A stretch of DNA of 64,000 bases from Armatimonadota bacterium. GTDB taxonomy: Bacteria > Armatimonadota > SYMT01 > JACQGL01. The DNA is taken from positions 712 to 64,711 of the forward strand of contig JACQGL010000205.1 in the NCBI GenBank assembly GCA_016199525.1, given 5' to 3'. Both the position numbers and the translations under genes were made by a program. A model generated the notes under the pieces. The model was given only the letters and a program-made list of their open reading frames with translations, ran no database searches and was not told where the DNA came from. Position 1 is the first letter of the stretch; the number at the start of each line of letters is the position of its first letter. Of the stretch, positions 1,762-54,649 are shown piece by piece.

Positions 1762-4700
1762 GTGAGCCGCGCCCTGAGGGTGTCCACCGCCCGCGCTACG
1801 AGGTGCGAGGCGTCACGCCCCTGCACCTGATCCACAAGTGGTCGATTGAGCACCCGTACGTGGTGATCGCCTTCTACGTGGCGGTGGTTGCGCTGGCCTG
1901 GCTGGCCATCACCCGCGCCATGCCGCGGCGCTTCGCCCCCTACGTGAAAAGCCCCCTCATCGGCGTGGTCACCATGATGCCGGGCCTCTCCGCTCAGGAG
2001 ATGGAGATCTACATCAGCAAGCCGATCGAGGAGCAGCTGGTCAACATCAAGGGGCTGCGTTATATCCGCTCCACCTCGCAGGATGGCTTTTCCCTCGTTT
2101 CCCTGGAGTTCCACTACGGGACGGATGTGGAAAAGGCAATCTTCGACGTGCAGGCGCTGATGAACGTGATCCAGGCAAACCTGCCGGCCACCGGCGCCAA
2201 CCTGAAGCCGTCCTGGGTGGTTGCCATCGACCCCCTTAACATCCCGATCCTCTCCCTCAGCCTGCGCGGGGACCCGGCGCAGGGCTGGGACGAGCTGCGC
2301 GTGCGGGAGTTCGCGGATAACACGGTGGTCAACCGGCTTAAGGAGATCACCAGCGTCTACTCGGTGGTGCCGTTCGGGGGCTACCGGCGGCAGCTCCAGG
2401 TAATTGTGGACCGCAATAGGCTGGCGGCCTATCGGCTCTCGATCCTGGACGTGAAGAATGCAATCGACCGCTTCAACGTAACCCGCGCCGCGGGCACGCT
2501 GACCTACGGGCCGTACGAGGGCATCGTGCGCGTGGATACCCGCGCATTGCAAGCGGAAGACGTGCTCAACTATCCGCTTACCAGCGTGACACCGGGCGCG
2601 GCCGCGCTCACCAGTGGCACGGCAGGCGGCGGTATGGGCGGCAGTACGGGCGGCGGCATGGGCGCGATGGGCGGTGGCGCTGAGACCCTTCCTCTCACCC
2701 CTCCCCTATCAGGCGAGGGGCCGGGGGAGAGGTTGGGATCGGCGGCCTCGCCCCGCATCGTCTATATCCGCGACGTGGCGCGGGTGATAGACACCCACTG
2801 GGAGCGCCGCAGTGCCTACCACTACCTCAAGCACGACCCGGGAGCGCCGGGCGAGGTGATTCCCTCCGTGGAGGTCTCCATCATCCAGGACCCGGGCGCC
2901 AGCTCGGCGACGGTGGTCCCCGCGGTGATGAAGGTCGTGGAGAAGCTGAAGAATGATAACCCTGGCCTCACGTTCGAGGTAGCCTACGACAACGCCCACT
3001 TCGTGAACATCCTGTTTGAAAACGTCTGGCACGAGCTGCTGATAGCCATCCTCCTCACCGGCATCGCTGTGCTCTTCTTCCTGGGGGAGTGGCGAGGCAC
3101 ATTGATCGCGATGGTCACCCTCCCCACCTCGCTGGGCTTCGCCGTGCTGCTGATGGTGCCGTGGGGAATGACGTTCAACAGCGGCACGCTCATCGGCCTG
3201 CTGCTCTCCATCGGCCGGCTGGTGGACGACAGCATCATCGACATCCACGCTGTGGAGCGCCACCTGCGCATGGGTAAGGACCCGAAGACCGCCACCATCG
3301 ATGGCATCGCCGAGGTGCGGCTGGCGGTGCTCGCCTCCACGTTAATGATGGTCCTGGCGATGACGCCGCTGCTGTTCACGGGCGGCATCACGCAGCTGAT
3401 GTTCCGGGAGCTGGTGTGGCCGATCATCTTCGGCCTGCTGGCCTCGATGCTCGTCTCCTTCACGCTCACCGCCCTCCTGTGCGCCAACCTGCTGCGCCAC
3501 GAGGAGGCGCGCGAGGTGGATCGGCGGCATCCCGTACTGCGCTGGCTCTACGTACCACTGGATCCGTTCCAGCGACTCCTGGATCGCCTCGAGGCAGGCT
3601 ACAGTCGCCTCATCAGGTGGATGCTGCGGAACCGGTTTAGCAACCTCGCCCGCATCATGGCGACGGTGATCCTGGGGTTCACTTTCTACTACTTCATCGG
3701 CAGCGAGATGATGCCACTGGCGGACGTGGGTCAGGCGAGCGGCCTCCTGGAGATGGCGCCGGGGACCTCCTTCGCGCAAACGGAGCGCGCGGTGCAGCAG
3801 CTCGAGCGGATTATGCTCAAGTACCCCGAACTGGAGAAGGCCAGCATCGAGATCGGCCAGGAAACGATGTTCGAGAGCTTCACCCCGTTCTACACTGGCT
3901 ACCAGATGCCGCAGACGAACGCCGCCGCGATGATGCTTACCTTTAGCGATAAGGATGACCGCAAACGCAGCATCTTCAAGGTGATAGATGGCATCCATAA
4001 AGAGGCACTGGCCACCATCCCCGGTATCCGGCGGCTGCAGATCAAGGAGATGGGCTCGGACGTGATGGCCACCGCTGCGGCACCCATCCACGTCAATATC
4101 TATGGCCCCGACCTCCAGGAGCTGGACCGGCTGGGCCGGGAGGTGGAGCAGGTGGCCCGGAAGATGTCCACCGATCTGTACCAGCCGGCGACCACCTGGG
4201 CCATGGGAGTGCCCGACTACCAGATCCGCGTCGATCCGCAGCGGGCGCAAGAGGTGGGCCTCTCTCCCGAGAACATCTCCCAGCAAGCCTACTATGCCCT
4301 GCGTGGCGGTCTCACCAACGAGTTCTACCGCCTGCCAAACCTGCGGCAGAACACCATCCTCGTCCGCTACGAGGCGGAGGAGCGGCGGGGGCCGCAGGAT
4401 CTGGAGAACCTGTACCTGACTACCGCGGATGGGCGGCAGGTGCCCCTGAAATCGGTGGCCACGGTGGAGCGTCACGTGGCGCCCACAGTAATCGAGCACG
4501 ACGGCCTGCGGCGCGTCCTCGGCATCACGGGCTACTACCGGATCGGCCACCTCCCCTCCATGGACGTGGTCATGGAGCTGGTGGCGAACGCCTATCGGGA
4601 AGTCAACTTCCCGCCCGGCTACGGCATGGAGATGCGGGGCGACATGACCCAGATGATGGACAGCTTCCGGCGGCTGCTTACCGGCCTGGGGCTGGCGCTC

Positions 4701-34040: not shown

Positions 34041-35192
34041 GTGAACTCGCGCTCCTTCCTATTCACATCCGAATCCGTAACTGAAGGTCATCCGGACAAG
34101 CTGGCGGACCAGATTTCCGATGCCGTGCTGGACGCCATCCTCGCCCAGGACCCCGAAGGCCGCGTGGCCTGCGAATGCCTAGTGACTACCGGCCTGTGCA
34201 TCGTAGCGGGGGAGATTACCACGGAGTGCTACGTGGAAATTCCCGACATCACCCGCCGGACGATTGAGGAAGCGGGTTACACCCGCGCCAAGTACGGCTT
34301 CGATAGCCTCACCTGCGGCGTGCTCACGGCCATCCAGCACCAGTCGCCGGATATCGCCATGGGCGTAGACACCGGTGGCGCGGGCGACCAGGGGATGATG
34401 ATTGGCTACGCCACGAACGAAACCCCCGAGTTGATGCCCATGCCGATCATGTTCGCTCACAAGCTGGCCAGGCAGCTGGCGCTGGTGCGCAAGACAGGCC
34501 AGATCTCCTACCTGCGTCCGGATGGCAAGAGCCAGGTAACGATCCAGTACGTGGATGGGCAGCCGCGGCGAGTGGATAAAGTGCTGGTTTCTGCCCAGCA
34601 CCAGCCTAATATCCCGCAGAAAACGATCTACCAGGACGTGGTAGATCGGGTGATCCTGCCCGTGATCTCGGAAGAGCTGCTGGACGCCCGCACGCAGTTT
34701 CTCGTGAACCCTACGGGGAGCTTCGCCATCGGCGGGCCGCAGGCAGATACCGGCCTCACCGGTCGCAAGATCATTGTGGACACCTACGGGGGCTTCGGGC
34801 GCCACGGCGGCGGCGCCTTCAGCGGGAAAGACCCCACCAAGGTGGATCGCTCCGCTGCCTATATGATGCGCTACGTGGCCAAGAACCTGGTGGCCGCCGG
34901 GCTGGCAGATCGCTGTGAGATCCAGGTGGCCTATGCCATCGGGCAGCGCGACCCGTTCTCGGTGATGATCGAGACCTTCGGGACGGGTAAGGTGCCGGAG
35001 CAGAAGCTGGTCGATCTGGTGGTCAAGTACTTCGACCTCACGCCACGGGGGATCATCAAACGCCTGGATCTCCAGCGCCCTATTTATCGGCAGACCGCCG
35101 TCTACGGCCACTTCGGGCGGACGGATCTGGGCGTGCCGTGGGAGGACACGGATATGGCGGAGACCCTGCGGCAGGAGGCGTATCGGGTATAG
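34041..35192 (+). CDS. metK: S-adenosylmethionine synthase
   Basis: N-terminus [19 protein letters not shown] motif, 383 aa. GTG start with a CCAGGAGGT RBS. Confidence 0.93.
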
Positions 35193-35220
35193 GGACCACA
35201 GAAGAGGAAAGGAAAAGACG

Positions 35221-35511
35221 ATGGCCAATGAAAATGATGTCGCCGAGAAAATAGAGAAGATTGCAGAACGGCACGTAGATGCGCTGATGCAGATTGTGTC
35301 GCAGCTACCGCCCGAGCGGCAGCAACAGCTGCAACCCCGAGTGGCAGAGTTGGGTGCAGCCGTGTACAGCATCCAGCGGAAGTACGGGGCCCGACGGATA
35401 ACACTGGTGCAGATACGATTATCGCTTGCCGAACGGAACCTGCTGGAGGCACACGCACGGGCGGCACACCAATCACTCAGCGCGTATATCCGCCAGAAAT
35501 GCAATCTTTAG
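35221..35511 (+). CDS. Small ribbon-helix-helix protein (CopG/MobC-like C-terminal RHH)
   Basis: C-terminal segment RITLVQIRLSLAERNLLEAHARAAHQSLSAYIRQK matches the RHH beta-alpha-alpha pattern. It starts 29 nt after the metK stop. Confidence 0.55.
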   Translation: MANENDVAEKIEKIAERHVDALMQIVSQLPPERQQQLQPRVAELGAAVYSIQRKYGARRITLVQIRLSLAERNLLEAHARAAHQSLSAYIRQKCNL

Positions 35512-35522
35512 AGCTTGCGTGG

Positions 35523-36242
35523 CTAATCGGGGTTCTCCTCCAGCCAGCGCTGGAGGGCCGCGTTTTCCTCGGCCAGGACGTCCGCATTTAGCAGCCCCCG
35601 CTGCAGGCCTTCGAAAACAGCCCGGCTGCGGGGGCTGAACATGCTGCCCGGTTCCTCCTCGCGTTCCACACCCAGCCTGGTGTAGAGGCCGTGTAACCGG
35701 TTCTGGGCGCCGCGCCGGGAGAGATAGCGACGCCGGGCGATCCCCCGGTCCGTCAGGCCCAGGGCAATGTCGATCAACGCCTCGTACTCGGCGTCCGTTA
35801 GCGCGCTGGGAGATTGCAGCGCGCGAGCCTGCACGCCGCGAATCTCCCGGTCCAGCCAGCACTGTTCTTCCAGCAGAACCATTCGCACGGCCTGAACCAG
35901 CTTCTCATCCGGGCTACTCTTCAGCACGTAGCCATATACGGTCTCCGGCGGGACGATCTGCGCCAGCCGGCGCACATAGATCTCGTCTTTGAACTGCGAC
36001 CAGAACACGATGCGCGTTTCGGAACGTTCTGCCCACACGCGGCGCGCTATCTCGATGCCATTGAGGCCCGGGAGCTGGATATCCATGACCAGCAGCTGTG
36101 GCTGTTCCTGCCGCGCGTGAATGAGCGCCTGCGCGCCATCGCCCACCGCCGCCAGGGGCAGCGCCTGCGGGATCCGTTCCCGTAACAACCGCTCCAGGTG
36201 CTCACGTTGCGCCGTGTTGTCTTCAACAATCAGCGTTTTCAT
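35523..36242 (-). CDS. Response regulator, NarL/LuxR family (REC domain plus HTH)
   Basis: N-terminus MKTLIVEDN..VMDIQLPGLNGIE with a C-terminal LuxR-type HTH. It lies directly downstream of a HisKA_3 kinase. Confidence 0.8.
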   Translation of the reverse strand: MKTLIVEDNTAQREHLERLLRERIPQALPLAAVGDGAQALIHARQEQPQLLVMDIQLPGLNGIEIARRVWAERSETRIVFWSQFKDEIYVRRLAQIVPPETVYGYVLKSSPDEKLVQAVRMVLLEEQCWLDREIRGVQARALQSPSALTDAEYEALIDIALGLTDRGIARRRYLSRRGAQNRLHGLYTRLGVEREEEPGSMFSPRSRAVFEGLQRGLLNADVLAEENAALQRWLEENPD

Positions 36243-36252
36243 CAGTCAGGTG

Positions 36253-38448
36253 TCAGTTATCAACGCTGTCCGCGGGTGTCTCGCGTAGCGGCAGGCAAAC
36301 TTCCACCCGCGTGCCGCCCGTTTCCCGGGCGCTCCAGCGGACACGAGCGCCGATCAGGTCGGCGCGGTAGCGAATGTTGGCCATCCCGAAAGCTTTCGGG
36401 ACTCCCGCCGCCTGCTCCAGATCCAGGCCGCAGCCATCGTCCCAGATCACCAGGATCAGCGCGCCATCCGCGTGCTGCACCTCCAGACCGGCGTGCCGGG
36501 CGCCGCTGTGCTGAAACAGGTTGTGGATCGCTTCCTGGCAAATGCGGTACAGGGCCAGGCGCTGGTCCGCCGTGAGTGTGGGTTCTTCGCCCACACGGCG
36601 CACGGTAACCGCCAGGGGCGGTGCGCAGCGCGCCGCGCCCGTGCGGAGGGCGCTCTCCAGCGCATCCCCCAGACCCAGCATATCCAGAACGGAAGGCCGG
36701 AGCGCTTCCATTACCTCGCGGACGCTGTTCATCGCGCCCCGCAACTCTGCCTCCAGATGCTCTAGCTCGGACGCGATATCACCGGGACAATGCTTGAGCC
36801 GTTCCGCCTGGGCGGCGATCTGGCGCAGCTCGGGGAGCACCTGGTCATGGAGGTCTGCCGCCAGTCGCCGTCGTTCCTCTTCCGTGCCGGCGAGCACCCC
36901 GGCGGTTCGTGCCGCCAGCTCGGCCCGTTGCCGCTCCAGGAGAGCGGCGCTGAGACGGGCGTTCTCCAGCGCTACCGCCGCCTGCACTGCCGCCGCGACC
37001 AGCAGCTGGCGCTCTTCGGTGGTGTAGGGCAAGCCGCTCTCCCGGGGACCAATCTGCAGGGTGCCCCACACCTCCTGACCGCGGCTCACAGGGATCGCCA
37101 GCTCTGCCTGCTTCTCTGGCGCGCCGTCCGGAAACACAAAGCGCACCAACGTCGGATGCAGCGCCTGCCGAACGCCTTGCTCCAGGGCGCGCAGCACTCC
37201 CTTGGCATCCGTTTGCCCGCCCAGATTCTGCGCCAGCCGGATCAATGTCTGGCGTGTCATGTCAACATCGCGGAAGAACCGACGATCCAGGTCGCGTAAC
37301 ACTTCCTGACGCTTGCCAAGCAGCAGTGCGACAATGAACATCCAGACCAGGTAGGGAACCATCTCTGCCGGGCGGCCGCGAGCGTGGGTCACGGAGATCT
37401 GCCCCAGGCGCCAGACGAGAAGGAACCCGGGGAGCAGAAAGAGCGTGCCCAGCGTCCAGCGTGCCAGCAGGTACTGGAGCGTCCGGCGGGCGACCACCCG
37501 GACTTCCAGCGCCCGCAGCCGGAACACGAGGTGGGCAACAGCAGCCCCAAACAGAGCCGCCGGCAACAGGCTGACCGGGGCGAACTGGTCGGGAACGGCC
37601 CACATCTGCTGCGAGATCCCTACCAGAACGGCGGCCAGTATTGCACCCGCAGCTACCGTGAGAGCGCGGATGATCGGGCGGCTGGCTTCGTCGGCACGTC
37701 GCCAGCCAGCGAGCACGATCGCCAGGCCGTAGATCGCATAACCAATGCCGATTACGTCAAACAGACCTGCCGCCGCCCTGGTTCTGCCTTCGCGCACCAG
37801 GCCGGCGCCCAGCAGGCCAAACAGGAATAGCGGCAGGTAAACGGCAACGGCCATTCGCCAGGGACATTGTGGTTTCTGCCGGGGGGCGGCGGGGAAGATG
37901 GAAAAGAAGTGGGCGGCGAGCGCCAGCGCCACCAGGCGGGGCGCGCGGGGGAACGCGAACACGGGCGCCGATATCAGCACTAATCCCAGAAGCACGGCGC
38001 GGCCATCCCGGGGTTGCTGCCAGAACAGCGCCAGCGCTACCGCTACCAGGCCTCCCTGGAGGAGCGCCAGAGCCCACCAGGCCAGGTGCACCGGCCACGC
38101 GGGTGCGGCGGGCTGAACTGCTAACCGCAGCACCTTTCCCTGGCGGATGATCTCCGCCCAGCCGGCGCGCGGCACGCCACTGCTCCACTGGACCCACTGC
38201 CCTATCCGGGACGGGGCGCCCGCCACCGTGAGCGTCTCGCCGTTTACCCACCGGTCGCCAGTCAGCACGCCGGCGCGACTTAGCGGGCTGCCCGGCTGCA
38301 CGTAAAGCCGCCGCTCCGGCCCCAGCACCAGCGCGCCAGGCGCTGCGCGCGCGCCGCCCACGAGCGGCCGAGCCATCGCACCGAGGAGAGCGAGGCTACC
38401 TGCAAACAGGAGCAGATAGGTGTACCAGGGCCGGGGCATATCTTTCAT
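36253..38448 (-). CDS. Sensor histidine kinase (HisKA_3 / HATPase_c) with a large multi-TM N-terminal sensor domain. The start is probably MKDMPRPW; the ORF is open to 38685.
   Basis: H-box ADLHDQVLPELRQ, an ATPase domain, and ~10 predicted TM helices. It contains an in-frame palindrome copy (GVPKAFGMANIR). Confidence 0.8.
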   Translation of the reverse strand: MKDMPRPWYTYLLLFAGSLALLGAMARPLVGGARAAPGALVLGPERRLYVQPGSPLSRAGVLTGDRWVNGETLTVAGAPSRIGQWVQWSSGVPRAGWAEIIRQGKVLRLAVQPAAPAWPVHLAWWALALLQGGLVAVALALFWQQPRDGRAVLLGLVLISAPVFAFPRAPRLVALALAAHFFSIFPAAPRQKPQCPWRMAVAVYLPLFLFGLLGAGLVREGRTRAAAGLFDVIGIGYAIYGLAIVLAGWRRADEASRPIIRALTVAAGAILAAVLVGISQQMWAVPDQFAPVSLLPAALFGAAVAHLVFRLRALEVRVVARRTLQYLLARWTLGTLFLLPGFLLVWRLGQISVTHARGRPAEMVPYLVWMFIVALLLGKRQEVLRDLDRRFFRDVDMTRQTLIRLAQNLGGQTDAKGVLRALEQGVRQALHPTLVRFVFPDGAPEKQAELAIPVSRGQEVWGTLQIGPRESGLPYTTEERQLLVAAAVQAAVALENARLSAALLERQRAELAARTAGVLAGTEEERRRLAADLHDQVLPELRQIAAQAERLKHCPGDIASELEHLEAELRGAMNSVREVMEALRPSVLDMLGLGDALESALRTGAARCAPPLAVTVRRVGEEPTLTADQRLALYRICQEAIHNLFQHSGARHAGLEVQHADGALILVIWDDGCGLDLEQAAGVPKAFGMANIRYRADLIGARVRWSARETGGTRVEVCLPLRETPADSVDN
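36383..36400. repeat. Palindromic repeat copy TCCCGAAAGCTTTCGGGA (inside the kinase CDS)
   Basis: Perfect 18-bp palindrome, identical to the copy at 8192. Confidence 0.9.
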
Positions 38449-38743
38449 ATAACCGTTCTGTTGCGCCGATGCAATCGGATATCTCCGCCGTTCCCACGGT
38501 GCAAAAGCACAGCCGCCCTGACGCTCTTGCCGCATCAATCGTGCGCTGTTCCCGCTGGGGCGCGGCGGCAGAACCAGGTATGCTGAAGCTGGAGGTGGGG
38601 GAAGAGGAACTACGGGGCGCGTGCCGCCCCCAGCGCTCCCCGCGGCCCCGCCGGAACCCTCTTCCCGTCCTGAGCCGGGGAGCATAGCGGAGAGATAACG
38701 GGAGATACAGTAGCACAGTAGAGACGTCGCAGGGAGGACAAGA

Positions 38744-39403
38744 ATGCAAACGTGGAAGAAGATCGGCGTTTTTGGCGGGCTGGCAGCGGCCCTTGTGGTG
38801 GCCGGCGCAGGCGTTTCGCGCGCTGCAGGGCCAGAGGGGCCCTGGGGCCGGCGTATACGGCTGATTCAGGCGCTGCGGGCGCTGGGGGTGACCCCCGACC
38901 AGGGGCGCGCGCTGAAAGCCGCGGCGGTGCACCTGGCGGTCGAGCGCCGGGCGCTGAACCTGGAAGATCTGTCGGCGCCCGAGCGCAAGGAGCGCCTGTT
39001 CCAGCTGCGCCGCGATTTCTTCGCCCGCGTGGATGCCACCCTTACCGCCGACCAGAAGGCGAAGTTGAAGGCCTGGTTCGAGCAGGGACGCGCGGCGCGC
39101 GCGGAGCAGCTCCGACAGAGAGCTGCCGCATTCGCCACGCAGCTGCAACTTACGGCGGAGCAGCGCGAACGAGCGAAAGACATTATCCAGCAGGCGAAGG
39201 CCAGGATAGACCAGGTGGCAGGCGATGCAGCGGTGGATACGCCTACGCGGCTGGCTACGGCGATCGGGGTGCTGGAAGAGATACCCGGTCAGATCTACCG
39301 CACCCTCACACCTGAGCAGAAAGAGAAGGCAAAGGGCCTGCTGGAGGCGGCTATCCGGTCCCGTCTACCCGTAGAGAACCTCCTCAACCAGGACGCGCCC
39401 TAG
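38744..39403 (+). CDS. Periplasmic LTXXQ-repeat protein (CpxP/Spy/ZraP family-like)
   Basis: Signal peptide, and three LTxxQ motifs (LTADQKAKLKAW, LTAEQRERAKDI, LTPEQKEKAKGL). It is divergent from the kinase-regulator pair. Confidence 0.7.
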   Translation: MQTWKKIGVFGGLAAALVVAGAGVSRAAGPEGPWGRRIRLIQALRALGVTPDQGRALKAAAVHLAVERRALNLEDLSAPERKERLFQLRRDFFARVDATLTADQKAKLKAWFEQGRAARAEQLRQRAAAFATQLQLTAEQRERAKDIIQQAKARIDQVAGDAAVDTPTRLATAIGVLEEIPGQIYRTLTPEQKEKAKGLLEAAIRSRLPVENLLNQDAP

Positions 39404-39416
39404 CTCCATAAACAAC

Positions 39417-39445
39417 GCAGCAATGCGTCTGTTGCTTGCTCTTTT
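39417..39445 (+). terminator. Putative rho-independent terminator after the LTXXQ gene
   Basis: Imperfect hairpin GCAGCAA..TTGCTTGC followed by TCTTTT. Confidence 0.4.
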
Positions 39446-39522
39446 GCCCCTATCTGGACGGCCGGGTTCAGGAGTAGGAGGTAAGAAGCAAGACAGCAGA
39501 AACGCGGCTGTAACGCCGAGCC

Positions 39523-39557
39523 AGAACCAGTTCCGGAGCTGCTCCGGAACTGGTTCT
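39523..39557. repeat. 35-bp perfect inverted repeat AGAACCAGTTCCGGAGC-T-GCTCCGGAACTGGTTCT
   Basis: 17-bp arms around one central nucleotide. Operator-like or cruciform-capable. Confidence 0.9.
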
Positions 39558-40042
39558 ACGTTTCACCTGAGGGCAACCTCACCCCCCGGGCCAGCTCGGG
39601 AGGCATGGCGGGCAGAAGGTCCGAAAGTTGGATCAAACTCCAGGAATCCGATCCCGTAAGTGCGCTGCTCCGGCGCCCGACAGCACCCCTGGCGCTCACT
39701 GCCAGGCCCTATCGACGGTACCTTGTAGGCATACTGCTCCTCCGGGCGACAACCCTACCCAGGCCGATGTTCTCCGCACGATAGAGGATGCGCCGACCCT
39801 GGCGCGGTTCGCCGGGCAGGCCCGTGACGTCGCGTATGGGAAGAGCTAGTGGACCATGAAACCAGTAGAGAGGCAATAAACCGTTTCCGTTCGACTACCA
39901 CACGCCCGCGCAGGTTATGTAAATCTTCTCATCGCTGCGGTTTACGATGGTAAACCCTGTAGGAACCACACTGTTGCCCAGTGCGAATAGAGACCCGCAA
40001 CCAACGCTCTGATGACCAGATAAGCACTGAGTCTGACTGACC

Positions 40043-40072
40043 AGAGCAGCAACGAAACCTTGCTGCTCTTTT
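40043..40072 (+). terminator. Rho-independent terminator (AGAGCAGCAA-cgaaacc-TTGCTGCTCT followed by TTTT)
   Basis: Perfect 10-bp stem, 7-nt loop, and a U-tract on the plus strand only. Confidence 0.7.
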
Positions 40073-40399
40073 CGTGAATACCTTCTATATATCAATAGGG
40101 GAATAACTGTGTCGCCGTACGATTCCCCGTGCTAGGCACGCACTGGCTTACAGCGCCAGGGAGATAAGATCAGCGCTCTTGCAGAGAGAGCTGTGGTAAA
40201 GCGGGATGTCGCTCCTCCCGCTATGCCCGTCCCGCAGTCCCGTTGCACCCGCGTCTGAAAGCAGCTTTAATGGGCTGGATTGAGCCACGAGCAGGAAAAG
40301 CGAAGATTTAGCACAGGCTTCAAGCAGGCTGTACGCTCCCTTTACCGGCCCTTTACCGGCGCGCGGTATGTTGTTGTTGGGGGAAAGGGGGCGAGGGAG

Positions 40400-40483
40400 A
40401 TGTGCGTGCTGTTAGCATTCATCAGTTTTGTAGCCCTGATGTTCATTTCGGACATGCTGGAGCGCCGTCAGCGCCACCGCTGA
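40400..40483 (+). CDS. Possible 27-aa hydrophobic mini-protein MCVLLAFISFVALMFISDMLERRQRHR
   Basis: Strong SD (GGGGGAAAGGGGGCGAGGGAG) before the ATG. A single TM helix with a basic C-terminus. It overlaps the 3' end of the convergent kinase gene. Confidence 0.3.
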   Translation: MCVLLAFISFVALMFISDMLERRQRHR

Positions 40484-41945
40484 CCACTGGCTTTCGTACT
40501 TCGTCCGGTGCCGCGTGCGTGTCACCGTTCTCGAGGGTAATGGCGCCTGTCGGCAATATGAAGGAGAACCGGCTGCCGACGCCCACCGTACTCTCTACGA
40601 ATACCTGGCCGCCGTATGCCTCGATAATCTCCTTGACGATGGACAGCCCGAGACCCGTGCCCGCCAGGTGCCGCGTGTGCGGATCGGAGCTGCGGTAGAA
40701 GCGCTCAAAGATACGCGCCAGATCGGCCGGTGGTATGCCGCTGCCGTGGTCCTCGACAAACACCCTGATCCATTCGTCTTCCCGTTCTGCACCCAATACC
40801 ACGGATTCCCCGACGGGGCTGTATTTGACGGCGTTGTCCAGTAAGTTGGCCAGCACCTGCTCCAGTTGCTGACAGTTCGCGTTAACCACGGCGGGCGGCC
40901 CCGGGGCAACTTCAAAACGCACCTGCTTCTCCGCGGCCACCGGCTCCATTAGCCGGGCGACGTCGTGCAGCACTTCGTTCACCTCAACCGGCGCGCGACT
41001 GTAACGCTCCACTCCGGTATCCAGGCGGGCGATGCTGAGGATGTCGTCCAGCAGAGCGCTGAGGTGCCGGCTCTGCCGTTCCAGGGTTTGCAGGAACTCT
41101 GTGGCGACTGCCGGGTCGTGAATTCCTCCCACGAGCAGCGCTTCGCAGGTGGCCCGCAGCGCCGTCACCGGGGTCCGGAGCTGGTGGCTCACATCCGCTG
41201 CGAAGACCTCACAGGCGTCCCTCTCCTTCTTGAGCCGCTGCACCATCTCCCGCAGGCGGCGGGTCATCAGGTTGAGGCTTTCGGCAAGCCGACCCACCTC
41301 GTCGGACGATGTCACCGTCAGGTGCTGCTCCAGGTCGCCGTCCGCCACCCGTCGCGCCATCTTCTCCATCCGCGCGACAGGTCGCGACAGGCTGGTCGCA
41401 ATCCGGAAGCTGAGCCAGCCCGCCAGCAGCATAGTGACGATCATGGTATCGATGGCCATCCGGCGGATCTTGCTCAGGGCGCGAGCGACGGTGAGGGAAG
41501 GAACCGTGAGCTGGACCTCGCGCACCGGGCTGCCGGCCACGCGCACCGGCTCCACGCTGTGCACGGATTCTACTTTCCGCTCTTCCTCGTGGCATACGGC
41601 ACAGGCCCTCTCCTGCCGGCCGGCGCGATGCACCCCGCTGCTCCCATTGCTCTGGCTATCGGCCAGCGCAACCCCGCCCGCGCCCAGGAGGGTCACCTGC
41701 GCGCCGACCTGCTTGCCCAGCGCATCACAGAGAGACTTGAGGTCGGCGGGAGGACCCGCGCGGTCGAGACTCTGGGACAGCAGCCGCGCCACCAGCCGGG
41801 TATGTTCCGCCGTCGCCTCACGGATGGATTCCAGGTAGTACTGCTTCACGGCGGAGAGGACGCGCACACCGAGTACCGTTACCGCCAGGAAGATGAGCAG
41901 CGTATAGGTAAGGGCAAGGCGGTAGCGGAGGCTGAGAGAGCGCAT
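40443..41945 (-). CDS. Sensor histidine kinase (HisKA + HATPase_c) with a CXXCH heme-c motif in the periplasmic sensor domain
   Basis: Two TM segments flank a periplasmic loop of ~140 aa that contains ACAVCHEEER. Also has a HAMP-like region, the H-box EVFAADVSHQLRTP, and G-boxes. Confidence 0.8.
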   Translation of the reverse strand: MRSLSLRYRLALTYTLLIFLAVTVLGVRVLSAVKQYYLESIREATAEHTRLVARLLSQSLDRAGPPADLKSLCDALGKQVGAQVTLLGAGGVALADSQSNGSSGVHRAGRQERACAVCHEEERKVESVHSVEPVRVAGSPVREVQLTVPSLTVARALSKIRRMAIDTMIVTMLLAGWLSFRIATSLSRPVARMEKMARRVADGDLEQHLTVTSSDEVGRLAESLNLMTRRLREMVQRLKKERDACEVFAADVSHQLRTPVTALRATCEALLVGGIHDPAVATEFLQTLERQSRHLSALLDDILSIARLDTGVERYSRAPVEVNEVLHDVARLMEPVAAEKQVRFEVAPGPPAVVNANCQQLEQVLANLLDNAVKYSPVGESVVLGAEREDEWIRVFVEDHGSGIPPADLARIFERFYRSSDPHTRHLAGTGLGLSIVKEIIEAYGGQVFVESTVGVGSRFSFILPTGAITLENGDTHAAPDEVRKPVVSGGADGAPACPK

Positions 41946-41951
41946 CTTGGT

Positions 41952-42632
41952 TCACCCCTCGAATCGGTAGCCCACGCCGCGGAGGGTGACGATGCGCACC
42001 GGGGCCTCCGGGTTCTTCTCGATCTTCTCCCGAAGGGAGTGAATGTGAACATCCAGGGTGCGCGTCTCCACGGCAAACGGCTCCCCCCACACCGTTTCGT
42101 AAAGGAACTCGCGGGACAACACCCGGCCTTTATGGTTCATGAGGGTTTTCAGTAACTCGAACTCCTTCAGGGTGAGATCCACACGACGGCCCTGCAGGAA
42201 GACCTTGCGGGAGTCGCCGTGCAACTCCAGGTCGCCCGACACGAGGGCCGATTCGGCGACCTCCAGGTCTTGCATCCGGCGGAGGACGGCGCGCACGCGG
42301 GCAATCAGTTCACGAATGCTGAACGGCTTGGTCACGTAGTCGTCGGCTCCCACCTCTAGGCCCACCACCCGATCCACTTCTGCCGTGCGCGCGGTGACCA
42401 TGATGATCGCCGCCGCTGATTCCTTTCGCAGCGACCGGCACACGGAAAGCCCATCTATATCCGGCAAGATCAGGTCGAGCAGCACGACATCCGGGCGCCA
42501 GGCACGCCCTTCCGCAATGGCTGTCTGTCCATCCGAGGCGATACGCGTGAGAAAGCCTTCCTTCTCCAGGGCGTAGCACAGCGAACGCGCAATATCTCTC
42601 TCATCCTCAACTACCAGGACTTTCGTGGTCAT
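41952..42632 (-). CDS. Response regulator, OmpR/PhoB family (the ORF is open upstream to 42923)
   Basis: N-terminus MTTKVLVVEDERDIA..LLDLILPDIDG and a C-terminal winged helix (LRGVGYRF). GGGAGGGGAGGG RBS. Confidence 0.85.
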   Translation of the reverse strand: MTTKVLVVEDERDIARSLCYALEKEGFLTRIASDGQTAIAEGRAWRPDVVLLDLILPDIDGLSVCRSLRKESAAAIIMVTARTAEVDRVVGLEVGADDYVTKPFSIRELIARVRAVLRRMQDLEVAESALVSGDLELHGDSRKVFLQGRRVDLTLKEFELLKTLMNHKGRVLSREFLYETVWGEPFAVETRTLDVHIHSLREKIEKNPEAPVRIVTLRGVGYRFEG

Positions 42633-42738
42633 GGCCCTCCCCTCCCGCGCTCTCCCACCAGCCGGTATCCCCCGGGTGCGCAGGGCGGAACGGGACTCCC
42701 AAAGGTGGTTTGGGGGTGCGCCGCCGGCTCCCCCGACC

Positions 42739-45219
42739 TCAATTCGGCTGCGTTGCATGACAGCGCAAACAATCCTCCAAGGCGAAGGCTCGCGTCCCGT
42801 TATGGCAGGCGCCGCATTGCTGCCCGCCCCCCATCTTCGCCATAGTGCAGGCGCCGCTCTCCGGGCGGCGCATCGGGAACAGACGCGAGTGGCACCCGGC
42901 GCAGCCATTCTCAGTGTACCCACGGTGCCGCGCGTGGCTGAATGTCACGGCGCCCGGGCTGCCCTCACCGGTGGGGAACCGGTAATCCGCCGGGGCAGCC
43001 TGCGCGTTCGACGAAGCCACCGGGCGAACCGTCGGTTTCCTGGGGGTGGCGTGGCAGAGGCCACAATCTGAAGCCACGGTAAACGCCTCCTTGCCGTTGT
43101 GGCAGAATCCGCACTGACGGCCTTCCTTCATGGAGGCCATACGCAGGTCGGGCGAAGAGACCATGCCAAAGAGTGCCGGGTGGCAGGTGGAACAAGTGCC
43201 ACCGCGGGAAAGATGAGCGCGATGGCTGAACGTTACCGGCCCGGGTGCGGCCTGGACGCGTCGCACACGATCCTCCGGCACGCGGTTCACATGCGCGACG
43301 GCGCCGCCCGGCGATGGGGAACTCCCCCGGTGACACAGCGCGCAGTCGGTGGCCACGGTGAACGCATCTCGCCCGTTATGGCACTTGCCGCACCCCTCGC
43401 CCTGGCGCATAGCCGGCATCTTCAGCGGACCGTTTTCCGGCGCTACCATCCCGAAGAGCGCCGGATGGCACGCGGTGCATTCGTCGTTCACGTGCGCCAG
43501 ATGCTGCCGGTGGCTGAAGGGCACCGGGCCCAGGCTCTGCTTCTGTGATGTGAACTGGAAATCCGCGGGCGGCGCAATCTGCCGGGCGGTTACGGAGGAA
43601 ACCGTGATGCCGCTACCGCTGGAGTGGCAGAAGCCACACCCATCCCGGACCTCAAACGCGTCCACACCATTGTGACAGGACTGGCACCGGTCCATCGTGT
43701 CGATGGTGTGCCCGGCGCCAGCACTGGCGGGCCGCGACATGAGAAACAATTCTGCGTGGCACGTTTCGCAGGCGAGATGCTGGCCGTTGACGTGCGTCGC
43801 GTGCCGGAACACCACCGTTCCTGGACTTACGGCGCCTTGAGGAAAGCGCTGCTCCGCAGGCACGCGCAGGGGAACCGTGGCCATGCGCGCCGCGACCTCC
43901 TGGAGGCGCGGGAAGCTGGGGCCCAACCGGCCGCTAGGGGACGCGGCTGCCTCGTTCGCCCGCACGAAAATCGCCGCAAGGGCGAAGAACATCGCCAGGC
44001 CGCTCAGGAAAGCGATACCGGCGGGCGTCGCAATGGGCGCTTCTCCTGGGTGGCCTGCCGGCCGGTTCCGTAGAAGTGGGGCGTAGCTCACGCCCTCCTC
44101 CGACCCTTCCTGGGGGGAAGGAAAGACCGGCAGGTAGCGCGCCGCCATCCCGAACGCCAGGAATCCGCAGGCGATGATGGCGATGGTGATTGCCATCTCC
44201 ATCCAGGTGGGGAAGTAAGCCTGACCGGCGCTCCGCTGAACCCCGGTAAAGCTGACGTTCAGCCGATTCAGCACAAATCCGCACAGCGCCAGGAGCGCGG
44301 CCAGGAACAGTCCGGTGCGGTCGCCGCGCACGCGTGGTGTCAGATAGAACGCTATGGGCAGCACACTGCCCAGGGCGACCTCCAGCAGAAACATCCGACT
44401 CTCCAGGGAACCTTCCAGCACCAGCCCCGCCTTTCCCCGCGCCAGCAGATCGGCCAGCCGGATCGCCAAGCCGAGGAGGAGCACCCCGGCGCTCGCCTTT
44501 GCCAGTCCCTGAAGGATGTCCCGGTGTACGCCAGTTCCGAAAGCCCGGTGGCTCAAATAAGACTCAAAGATAACCATCGACAGCCCAGCGCCCACGGCGG
44601 ACACAAAGAAAAACAGCGGCAGCAGCGGGGAATACCATAGCCCGTGCAGCTTGTTCGGCACGATGAGGAACAGGGTTCCGAGGGATGACTGGTGCAAGGT
44701 GGAGAGCAAGACGCCGGTGATGACCAGCGGCACGATCGCCGCGTGAATCCAGCGGAGGGGTGTCTGGAGGCCGAGCCGCTCAAGTAACGCGGGGCTGAAC
44801 TCCAGGGCGAGCACACCGGTATAGAACATCACGCACATCGCCACCTCGAAGAGCGGCGAGTGGAGGTTGCCCATAATCAGGGGGTGCCAGATGCGGTACG
44901 GCAAGCCGAGGTCGCATAGCAGCGACACGATGACCAGCAGATACCCCAGGAAGGCGGTCAGTAGGGACGCCCGCAGGATGGCGCGGTACTTTTCCAGGCG
45001 GAACACGTAAACCATTGCGGCGAGGGTGAACCCTCCCGCGCTGAGACCGACGCCGCAGAGCACGTCGAAGCCGATCCAGAGCCCCCAGGGATAGGCATCG
45101 CTGAGGGCCGTCGTGGCGCCCAGCCCGTAAACAAACCGCGCCACGAGGGAGTAGATTCCTGCGCCGAGGATGATAATAAGCATCGCGCGCCAGAACGTGA
45201 TGGAAGGACGGGGTCTCAT
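42739..45219 (-). CDS. Fusion protein: N-terminal NrfD/PsrC-like polytopic membrane (quinone-interacting) domain plus C-terminal dodecaheme cytochrome c (4 x c7-type triheme repeats)
   Basis: ~400 aa with ~10 TM helices, then 12 CXXCH motifs with a recurring F.H..H(x6-9)C..CH pattern (for example VTFSHRAHLSRGGTCSTCH). ATGA overlap with the upstream ferredoxin gene. Confidence 0.8.
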   Translation of the reverse strand: MRPRPSITFWRAMLIIILGAGIYSLVARFVYGLGATTALSDAYPWGLWIGFDVLCGVGLSAGGFTLAAMVYVFRLEKYRAILRASLLTAFLGYLLVIVSLLCDLGLPYRIWHPLIMGNLHSPLFEVAMCVMFYTGVLALEFSPALLERLGLQTPLRWIHAAIVPLVITGVLLSTLHQSSLGTLFLIVPNKLHGLWYSPLLPLFFFVSAVGAGLSMVIFESYLSHRAFGTGVHRDILQGLAKASAGVLLLGLAIRLADLLARGKAGLVLEGSLESRMFLLEVALGSVLPIAFYLTPRVRGDRTGLFLAALLALCGFVLNRLNVSFTGVQRSAGQAYFPTWMEMAITIAIIACGFLAFGMAARYLPVFPSPQEGSEEGVSYAPLLRNRPAGHPGEAPIATPAGIAFLSGLAMFFALAAIFVRANEAAASPSGRLGPSFPRLQEVAARMATVPLRVPAEQRFPQGAVSPGTVVFRHATHVNGQHLACETCHAELFLMSRPASAGAGHTIDTMDRCQSCHNGVDAFEVRDGCGFCHSSGSGITVSSVTARQIAPPADFQFTSQKQSLGPVPFSHRQHLAHVNDECTACHPALFGMVAPENGPLKMPAMRQGEGCGKCHNGRDAFTVATDCALCHRGSSPSPGGAVAHVNRVPEDRVRRVQAAPGPVTFSHRAHLSRGGTCSTCHPALFGMVSSPDLRMASMKEGRQCGFCHNGKEAFTVASDCGLCHATPRKPTVRPVASSNAQAAPADYRFPTGEGSPGAVTFSHARHRGYTENGCAGCHSRLFPMRRPESGACTMAKMGGGQQCGACHNGTRAFALEDCLRCHATQPN

Positions 45220-54288: not shown

Positions 54289-54638
54289 GGGGGCGATGGG
54301 TATCGACAAAGGCGGATAGCGGCGGCAGTTGCGAGCCGAGGCGCCGCTGGCCTCGTAAAAAGCGGCAAAAAACAAACGCCAACACTGGCACGTACGCTTA
54401 CGCTGCCTAATTAGTTAGGGAGCGCGCTTCTCCAGGGCCGGGCCGGGAGCCCGAAGAGAGGCGACGACAATCCTGGCCGCCCGCGTGGGTTTCACCCGCG
54501 AGCCCACGTGCGGTAATCGCGGGCTGGCGCGTGGCCGGTTTGCCGATGGAACGGCGCGCGCGAGACTTAAACATCGGCTACGCTCGTAGGCGCTACCGCA
54601 CGCACCCTTTGGACCCGGGTTCAATTCCCGGCGCCTCC
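54289..54638 (+). ncRNA. ssrA: tmRNA (ssrA), with tag-peptide ORF GCC..TAA encoding ANTGTYAYAA
   Basis: 5' end GGGGGCGATGGGTATCGAC pairs with 3' end CGCCTCC-A. tRNA-like 3' domain GGACCCGGGTTCAATTCCCGG. Internal CCTCGTAAAAAGCGGCAAAAAACAAAC GCCAAC... closely parallels E. coli tmRNA. Confidence 0.85.
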
Positions 54639-54649
54639 ACTTTTCCGCT

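Follow-up and report, generated by a model that had tools for sequence, protein, structure and literature searches.

The 64,000-nucleotide stretch of DNA analysed here (the window), from contig JACQGL010000205.1 of assembly GCA_016199525.1, encodes a small secreted protein with LTxxQ motifs back to back with an operon for a sensor histidine kinase and a response regulator. The three open reading frames (ORFs) lie exactly where a preliminary description of this DNA had placed them. We lean, if only somewhat, towards reading the three genes as a Cpx-like module for envelope protein-folding stress, built from non-homologous signalling parts and including a probable feedback step, in a lineage that includes Armatimonadota. 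The genes and the elements next to them are the following (aa, amino acids; nt, nucleotides).

38744-39403, forward strand: gene of the LTXXQ protein, ORF of 219 aa
38744-38824, forward strand: predicted Sec signal peptide, residues 1-27 (MQTWKK...VSRA, cleaved before AGPEG); hydrophobic segment, cleavage site judged by eye
38732-38737, forward strand: Shine-Dalgarno sequence GGGAGG, 6 nt before the ATG of the LTXXQ gene, read from the sequence
39417-39445, forward strand: terminator-like hairpin with a T-rich tail, 14 nt past the stop codon of the LTXXQ gene
38449-38743, no strand: divergent intergenic (regulatory) region of 295 bp, aligned with four orthologous regions
36253-38448, reverse strand: sensor histidine kinase gene, ORF of 731 aa; alternative start at 38439
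35523-36242, reverse strand: response regulator gene, ORF of 239 aa beginning 10 nt past the kinase stop codon; receiver (REC) domain at residues 4-120, divergent LuxR/NarL-type helix-turn-helix (HTH) at about 146-195, C-terminal extension of about 40 aa

In the ORF list, the kinase frame is open upstream as far as 38685. As five kinase orthologues all begin with the motif M-x-RPWY, the kinase likely starts at 38448 or 38439. The hairpin after the stop codon of the LTXXQ gene implies that this gene is monocistronic. Its product is identical to a 'hypothetical protein' of an Armatimonadetes metagenome-assembled genome (MAG; locus tag HY320_12675).

The preliminary description presented the 219-aa protein as secreted and as carrying three LTxxQ motifs, and both points hold. 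LTADQ, LTAEQ and LTPEQ are found at residues 100, 136 and 188, and VTPDQ at residue 49 forms a fourth, LTxxQ-like motif. Three LTxxQ motifs appeared in only 2 of 20,000 shuffles of the mature sequence, and this is the sole ORF segment in the whole window with at least three. The N-terminus, assessed by eye, has a KK n-region, a hydrophobic core (residues 5-28) and a VSRA-A cleavage site, a pattern fitting a Sec signal peptide and kept in eight members of the family; it fits export of the protein to the periplasm. Since the protein has no cysteine, and so no lipobox cysteine, it is not a lipoprotein.

As judged by profile methods, which settle the matter, the protein belongs to the Spy/CpxP superfamily. 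Searched singly, it scored just under the threshold of the LTXXQ family PF07813 (23.7 bits, gathering threshold 24.3; E 8.3e-5) and reached no better than 5e-4 with the NCBIfam model for CpxP and 2e-3 with that for Spy. A single-sequence phmmer search of the PDB gave no significant match (Spy 0.29, CpxP 0.37), and a word-indexed protein search returned the protein itself plus one homologue only. A profile of the protein and its closest homologue found 490 proteins at E<=1e-3 in a library of 1.84 billion representatives, and PF07813 is matched by 77 of the best 80 of these 490 (E<=0.001, best 1.4e-22). Against PDB sequences, a profile of the eight closest sequences matched Spy at 1.6e-5 to 7.7e-5 and CpxP at 0.01; with 80 sequences the values were 1e-12 for Spy and 5.6e-5 for CpxP. 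The proposed place in the CpxP/Spy/ZraP family is therefore carried by the relatives and by the profile matches to Spy and CpxP, the protein's own PF07813 score being the part that fell short. Family membership of this small protein is in itself routine annotation, as three homologues already bear the Joint Genome Institute (JGI) name 'Spy/CpxP family protein refolding chaperone'.

Profile comparison also indicates that the protein consists of a Spy-like unit duplicated in tandem, and so forms a 'single-chain double Spy'. The C-terminal half (residues 127-207) aligns with the whole Spy core in the eight-sequence profile, and the two halves (residues 34-122 and 123-210) align with each other in hhalign (probability 97%, E 4.7e-11, 83 columns). 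Given that the halves are homologous and the C-terminal one spans the Spy core, the duplication follows. An AlphaFold2 (AF2) model built from an alignment of two sequences is all-helical (predicted local distance difference test, pLDDT, 72), with helices beginning at residues 51, 102, 138 and 190, two residues past the leucine of each motif. Its best Foldseek match is Spy (5wo2_B, probability 0.98), a weak match (E 0.29, template-modelling score 0.51 on the target).

The kinase was described as a HisKA_3 enzyme of the NarX type with a sensor of about ten transmembrane (TM) segments. This is borne out, with a periplasmic PDZ domain and a GAF domain to be added. Its parts, all on the reverse strand, are these.

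38095-38358, reverse strand: periplasmic PDZ-like domain, residues 31-118, between TM1 and TM2, from the profile of orthologous loops
37312-38094, reverse strand: polytopic membrane part of the sensor, residues 119-379, about nine TM segments, ending in LDRRFFRD, a juxtamembrane motif that is conserved
36961-37257, reverse strand: cytoplasmic GAF domain, residues about 398-496 (Pfam)
36283-36876, reverse strand: transmitter of HisKA_3 (residues 525-588) and HATPase_c (residues 630-722) (Pfam, NCBIfam)

In Pfam, the roughly ten hydrophobic segments are followed by GAF, HisKA_3 and HATPase_c, with 36.7 bits for PF07730 (HisKA_3; gathering 24) and 34.7 for PF02518 (gathering 26.4). The 90-residue loop between TM1 and TM2 is placed outside the cytoplasm because the N-terminus is positively charged and the number of TM segments is even. 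The loop carries the motif GSPLxRAGVxxGD and is, by sequence, likely a periplasmic PDZ domain. All 60 listed matches of a profile of six orthologous loops to PDB sequences are PDZ domains or PDZ-containing proteins, led by SNX27 (3.9e-5), an Aquifex S2P homologue (5.3e-5) and Escherichia coli RseP (6e-5 to 1e-4), with HhoA, DegQ and HtrA1 among the further matches. The Pfam model PDZ_6 matches five of the six orthologous loops (best 1.1e-5); the window's own loop matches it weakly (E 0.012-0.17), so that the PDZ assignment comes from the family profile. On these comparisons, the domain appears most similar to the PDZ domains of the envelope quality-control proteases RseP, DegQ and HtrA. The polytopic part of the sensor matches no Pfam family, and a word-indexed search with the sensor domain found three proteins only. 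An AF2 model of sensor residues 1-400 (pLDDT 57, with only generic 7-TM or helical Foldseek matches) was not used.

The sensor is shared with kinases of another kind. Scanning metagenomes with the sensor alignment gave 72 loci. Ten distant ones were examined. In nine of them (L018, L021, L024, L038, L043, L046, L050, L054 and L072, where the match mostly starts at about 4001) the product has 750-1000 aa and a C-terminal Hanks-type Ser/Thr kinase domain, and in one it has HisKA_3 and HATPase. A window-type sensor profile matches the distant kinases at E 1e-8 to 1e-16 (Z = one million), several of them over profile positions 1-398; the part of the window homologous to the N-termini of the Ser/Thr kinases is 37249-38448 on the reverse strand, which comprises the PDZ domain, about nine TM segments and LDRRFFRD, a module after which GAF often follows. 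A PDZ match is found in seven of the nine Ser/Thr kinases and passes the Pfam threshold in six (for example, PDZ_6 at 39 bits, threshold 27), which strengthens the PDZ assignment of the window kinase; GAF is matched by Pfam in two of the ten distant loci. The Ser/Thr kinases with this module come from soil and sediment metagenomes, and no LTXXQ gene was found within 4 kb in the distant loci. The PDZ-polytopic module thus appears, from sequence comparison, to be a portable sensor unit that seems to be undescribed. It is a rather unlikely extension that residues 1-400 serve many soil bacteria as a portable envelope sensor, mounted on HisKA_3 or Ser/Thr kinases, and that here the double-Spy protein presents unfolded proteins to the PDZ domain or competes with them for it. 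Were that so, a DegS-like peptide read-out would be coupled directly to signalling by phosphorylation and not to proteolysis.

The regulator fits the NarL type given to it in the preliminary description, as it has a REC domain (62 bits, E 6.5e-17 in Pfam) and aligns with DevR/DosR over residues 2-202, through the HTH (E 4.5e-12). Pfam GerE did not match the regulator at E<=1, an absence resolved by the DevR alignment, which runs through the LuxR-type HTH. The NCBIfam matches (NarL, NarP, MadR and MctR) are all below cut-off, and the alignments to NarP, MadR and FimZ extend to residues 192-197. The closest types for the kinase-regulator pair are NarL, DevR, UhpB and MctS. The pair shows no orthology to CpxA/CpxR or ZraS/ZraR, as the kinase has HisKA_3 and not HisKA and the regulator has neither Trans_reg_C nor a sigma-54 AAA+ domain. 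The signalling parts are accordingly non-homologous to CpxAR (OmpR type) and to ZraSR (NtrC type), as had been proposed.

The divergent pairing of the LTXXQ gene with the kinase-regulator operon, also noted earlier, recurs in six further loci with different flanks, and this recurrence supports a functional link. In all seven loci encoding this LTXXQ subfamily (the window, L001, L004, L005, the partial L007, the contig of P0008 and L014), the LTXXQ gene is divergent from the orthologous kinase gene, the regulator follows the kinase wherever the contig reaches that far, and the flanking genes differ in every case. L014 was located starting from the kinase and the other relatives from the LTXXQ protein. 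Identity to the window across orthologous loci is 73-87% for the regulator, 36-64% for the kinase (over its full length) and 34-52% for the LTXXQ protein; CpxR, CpxA and CpxP are reported to show the same gradient when Vibrio is compared with E. coli (PMC6737893). The distant LTXXQ proteins P0155, P0159 and P0163 are not beside any two-component system, which makes the pairing specific to this subfamily. Scans with a four-sequence LTXXQ alignment found two distant loci in genome contigs and none in metagenome contigs.

Several of these loci have features of their own. In L001, an additional 147-aa gene (3655-4098, reverse strand) with a weak BamE-like match (E 9e-4, below threshold) lies between kinase and regulator. 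Genes for sigma factors of the extracytoplasmic function (ECF) type adjoin the module in L005 (5935-6510, reverse strand) and L007 (2343-3029, forward strand), the two most divergent LTXXQ-linked loci, and do not do so in the window; in L005 a gene with a faint match of the zf-HC2 anti-sigma type comes after the sigma gene, and an S8 peptidase gene after that. On the P0008 contig (JGI 3300041967), the kinase is annotated in two ORFs that overlap, one for a sensor of 487 aa and one for a HisKA_3/HATPase protein of 253 aa; the cause is a frameshift or an error of assembly, unless this kinase is truly divided in two.

Seen from the kinase, the link is looser. Six close orthologues, 52-61% identical and with readable upstream DNA, were compared (L008, L013, L014, L015, L016 and L017), and only L014 has an adjacent LTXXQ gene. 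In L013 and L015, a PSCyt2/PSD1 gene precedes the kinase gene on the same strand; in L016 an ACT-domain gene and in L017 a Kelch-repeat gene is divergent from it. As five of the six lack the neighbouring gene, the two-component system can evidently work without it. The link is therefore one-sided: the LTXXQ subfamily always occurs with the system, and the system often occurs without the LTXXQ gene. Such a relation is expected of a dispensable accessory protein or a dedicated target, and the LTXXQ protein looks like an optional partner or target of the system. CpxP is likewise dispensable for most Cpx signalling (PMC6737893). In L008 (1-979, reverse strand; Armatimonadota MAG GCA_035761025.1), the divergent gene, which lies beyond the same palindrome as described below, codes for a secreted, beta-rich protein with a length of 285 aa or more and no Pfam match; this protein may sit in the outer membrane and serve the system as an alternative target.

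Between the divergent genes of the window lie two elements of interest.

38497-38512, no strand: conserved 6-4-6 palindrome CGGTGCAAAAGCACAG, candidate operator of the NarL-type regulator
38579-38584, forward strand: TATGCT, a TAnnnT hexamer and weak candidate -10 element of the LTXXQ gene, 66 nt past the palindrome

The palindrome has the 16-bp family consensus CTGTGC-N4-GCACAG. In the window it lies 48 nt upstream of the kinase start codon, and across loci this distance is 48-132 nt. Copies with at most one mismatch are found in the window, L004, L005/L006, L007, L008, L014 and L017, perfect in L005 and L007 and with one mismatch in L004, L008, L014 and L017; L001 and L013 have the right half only. 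GCACAG is the sole 6-mer common to six upstream regions, and any shared 6-mer was seen in 21 of 2000 shuffles. In 184.6 kb of scanned DNA, sequences within one mismatch of the consensus occur at these upstream sites only, and no further such copy was found in the window. Since L008 and L017 have the palindrome too, next to a divergent gene of a type other than LTXXQ, it is tied primarily to the kinase-regulator operon, a position that by its sequence context fits autoregulation. The ComA site has the same 6-4-6 geometry: two TTGCGG hexamers form an inverted repeat around a 4-nt spacer, and the protein that binds there is a dimer with an HTH of the same class (PMC4797271). By this analogy, we infer that the locus's own regulator is the obvious candidate to bind the palindrome.

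The repeats containing GTTCCC to which the preliminary description drew attention are both present, CGCCGTTCCC at 38486-38495 and CGCTGTTCCC at 38544-38553. With one mismatch allowed, a 10-nt repeat is not significant in 295 bp of DNA that is 64% guanine-cytosine (GC), and the repeats are conserved only in the closest relative, L001, being missing at the aligned positions in L004, L005 and L007. They are thus not a conserved cis element, and were rejected as an operator of NarL type. Two other readings of the palindrome, made by eye only, were dropped: a sigma-54 site, the regulator having no AAA+ domain, and a CRP/FNR site, the 6-4-6 spacing differing from the CRP spacing.

Towards the LTXXQ gene, a TAnnnT hexamer lies 66-67 nt past the palindrome in the window, L001, L004, L005 and L007. 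No such hexamer is found at that distance in L014, and a consensus sigma-70 scan of 35100-40500 found no promoter, so the promoter assignment for the LTXXQ gene is tentative. A search of 38400-40460 against Rfam gave no match at E<=1. Several orthologous loci have short tandem repeats in the stretch from the kinase start codon to the palindrome region, with units that differ by locus (CCCATACT-type at about 9680-9790 in L005, CACCTAACA-type at about 1370-1470 in L007 and GGGAGAATG-type at about 3870-3950 in L016).

Given the above, the circuit could operate as follows. The PDZ-bearing kinase would sense that the envelope is disturbed, the likeliest signal being peptide termini that become exposed or secreted proteins that are unfolded. 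Its phosphorylated NarL/DevR-type regulator would bind CTGTGC-N4-GCACAG as a dimer in the shared upstream region, and from there would control both its own operon and the divergent LTXXQ gene. The secreted double-Spy protein may then act as an ATP-independent periplasmic chaperone or adaptor, and probably feeds back on the periplasmic face of the kinase by analogy with CpxP and ZraP. An analogous envelope-stress circuit made of non-homologous parts had been suggested before, and the family of the secreted protein, the type of the signalling pair and the recurrent arrangement support it.

Several observations weigh against this reading of the locus. The PF07813 score of the LTXXQ protein is 0.6 bit under the threshold, and the support from its predicted fold is of low confidence, with a pLDDT of 72 from two sequences and a Spy match at E 0.29. 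The match of the kinase's own loop to PDZ_6 is weak. Most close kinase orthologues have no LTXXQ gene beside them, and the palindrome persists in two loci whose divergent gene is of another kind. L014 breaks the spacing of the hexamer, and the sigma-70 scan was negative. Lastly, the window comes from an uncultured organism represented by a MAG.

The alternative that survives best is that the LTXXQ protein is output only, a stress-induced chaperone under the control of the system without feedback, the kinase sensing through its own PDZ and membrane module. This differs from the favoured Cpx-like module in the feedback step alone, a step on which the sequence data do not separate the two, and we consider it possible though unlikely. 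In E. coli, spy is controlled by BaeSR and CpxAR. The better fit of the family profile to Spy than to CpxP speaks for an output-only role, as do the close kinase orthologues that mostly lack an adjacent LTXXQ gene and the use of the same PDZ-polytopic module with Ser/Thr kinase outputs that have no LTXXQ neighbour. However, looser linkage would be expected of a generic regulon member than is seen in this subfamily, whose members are physically tied to the kinase in seven of seven loci, and LTXXQ proteins that modulate their kinases have precedents in CpxP and ZraP (PMC6737893).

A circuit for sensing or resisting zinc, copper, nickel or cobalt, of the ZraP/ZraSR or CnrX type, with the LTXXQ protein as a metal-binding modulator of the kinase, is quite improbable. 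ZraP is in the same superfamily, the Metal_resist family PF13801 is matched by 33 of the same 80 relatives, and CnrX appears far down the Foldseek list for the LTXXQ model, at rank 43. However, the mature protein has one histidine and no cysteine or methionine, and none of the 18 invariant residues of the family is histidine, cysteine or methionine, so that conserved ligands of the ZraP/CnrX type are found in neither; nor do genes for metal efflux or resistance occur beside any of the loci. The metal-stress option of the preliminary description is therefore disfavoured.

Still a little less probable is peptide (quorum) sensing of the ComP/ComA kind, with the LTXXQ gene merely a neighbouring target. 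The combination of PDZ, HisKA_3 and HATPase_c has been catalogued as the 'ComP family', found mostly in Firmicutes (PMC6411480), and the window kinase conforms to it, with an extracytoplasmic PDZ domain N-terminal to HisKA_3 and HATPase_c. Its polytopic sensor, the NarL/ComA-type regulator and a palindrome with the geometry of the ComA box (PMC4797271) point the same way. Against this, the gene lists of five loci contain no comQ/comX-like pair upstream, no ComP-specific NCBIfam model matches, and the divergent partner is a periplasmic protein of chaperone type. That the LTXXQ gene sits beside the two-component system without any functional tie, as the other neighbours of several close kinase orthologues might suggest, is hardly credible given the same pairing in seven loci with different flanks and only 34-53% identity of the LTXXQ protein, with no subfamily member found away from the kinase.

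Around the module, the roughly 1 kb between the LTXXQ gene and a convergent kinase gene (39404-40442) contains ORFs of 78 aa at most, an unusual feature in a 65% GC genome. Downstream of the LTXXQ gene, it includes a near-perfect inverted repeat of 17+17 nt (39523-39557) and a stretch of lower GC content (about 39850-40110). Beyond it, at 40443-42650 and 42739-45219 on the reverse strand, a second two-component system (a HAMP-HisKA kinase and an OmpR-type regulator) is found next to a protein of 826 aa that is polytopic in its N-terminal half and has about a dozen CxxCH haem motifs. The extracytoplasmic region of the HAMP-HisKA kinase has a CAVCH motif and a faint Pfam magnetochrome match (residues about 106-120), which suggests a haem-binding redox sensor. 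On the other side of the module, a 96-aa ORF (35221-35511, forward strand) is convergent with the regulator gene and has a C-terminal ribbon-helix-helix/NikA-like match (28.4 bits, gathering 27); as it is not at the corresponding place in L001, L004 and L005, it is probably unrelated to the module. A transfer-messenger RNA gene is found at 54289-54642 on the forward strand (Rfam RF00023, 143 bits, full length).

To our knowledge, almost all understanding of envelope-stress signalling comes from Proteobacteria (Cpx, Zra, Bae, sigma-E) and Firmicutes (Lia). The locus suggests that the same design, a secreted Spy/CpxP-type protein back to back with the two-component system that presumably controls it, was assembled independently and from different parts in a poorly studied diderm phylum. 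It offers a concrete, testable operator sequence with a small set of orthologous loci, and it points to a sensor module, shared with Ser/Thr kinases, whose membrane part belongs to no Pfam family. The pairing of an LTXXQ protein with its own two-component system is textbook knowledge (Cpx, Zra). A literature search found nothing relevant on an LTXXQ or CpxP-like protein paired with a HisKA_3 kinase, or on PDZ-bearing Hanks-type kinases. Within the searchable literature, four features therefore appear to be new, namely an LTXXQ protein paired with a system of HisKA_3/NarL type in which the sensor bears a PDZ domain in the periplasm, the fusion of two Spy units, the candidate palindromic operator, and the sensor module that Ser/Thr kinases also carry.

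Among known systems, the Zra and Cpx systems have the same layout. ZraP, a periplasmic protein of the LTXXQ superfamily, is encoded divergently from ZraSR, and Appia-Ayme et al. (2012, cited in PMC6737893) are said to have described it as both a chaperone and a repressor of that system. In contrast to the window, ZraR is a sigma-54-dependent activator of the NtrC type, whereas the window regulator has no AAA+ domain, and ZraP binds zinc through histidine and cysteine, ligands that the window protein lacks. In CpxP-CpxRA of Enterobacteria and Vibrio, the gene for a secreted helical LTXXQ protein is likewise upstream of, and divergent from, the operon for kinase and regulator, and conservation falls from regulator to kinase to LTXXQ protein as it does here. 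CpxP is the most induced member of its regulon, inhibits the periplasmic domain of its kinase and is titrated away by misfolded proteins (PMC6737893). The parts differ. CpxA is a HisKA kinase with two TM segments and a PAS-like periplasmic domain, whereas the window kinase has HisKA_3, PDZ, about ten TM segments and GAF; CpxR is of the OmpR type and the window regulator of the NarL/DevR type; and CpxP is a two-motif protein that dimerises, whereas the window protein is a tandem duplication with four motifs.

The family profile of the window protein is closer to Spy than to CpxP, and E. coli Spy is its best match in sequence and, weakly, in structure. Spy is an ATP-independent helical chaperone induced by envelope-stress two-component systems. 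The window protein is of the same helical type and by analogy may share the other properties. Spy is a single unit that forms a homodimeric cradle and its gene is not beside those of its regulators, whereas in the window a single chain comprises two fused units and its gene is linked to that of the kinase. Bacillus ComP-ComA resembles the window pair in architecture, with a polytopic sensor and PDZ before HisKA_3 and HATPase_c (PMC6411480), and in having a tetrahelical HTH regulator; the ComA operator is a hexamer inverted repeat with a 4-nt spacer (PMC4797271), as is the candidate operator in the window. The Bacillus system differs in that the window has a GAF domain, no comQX pair, a diderm host and a periplasmic chaperone partner. 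The sigma-E pathway of DegS and RseP has periplasmic PDZ domains of the same sequence type, which there monitor envelope protein folding. That pathway works by proteolysis, in a cascade that targets an anti-sigma factor, whereas the PDZ domain of the window is part of a histidine kinase. If this domain reads the termini of unfolded proteins, the locus would link sensing of the DegS type to phosphorelay signalling.

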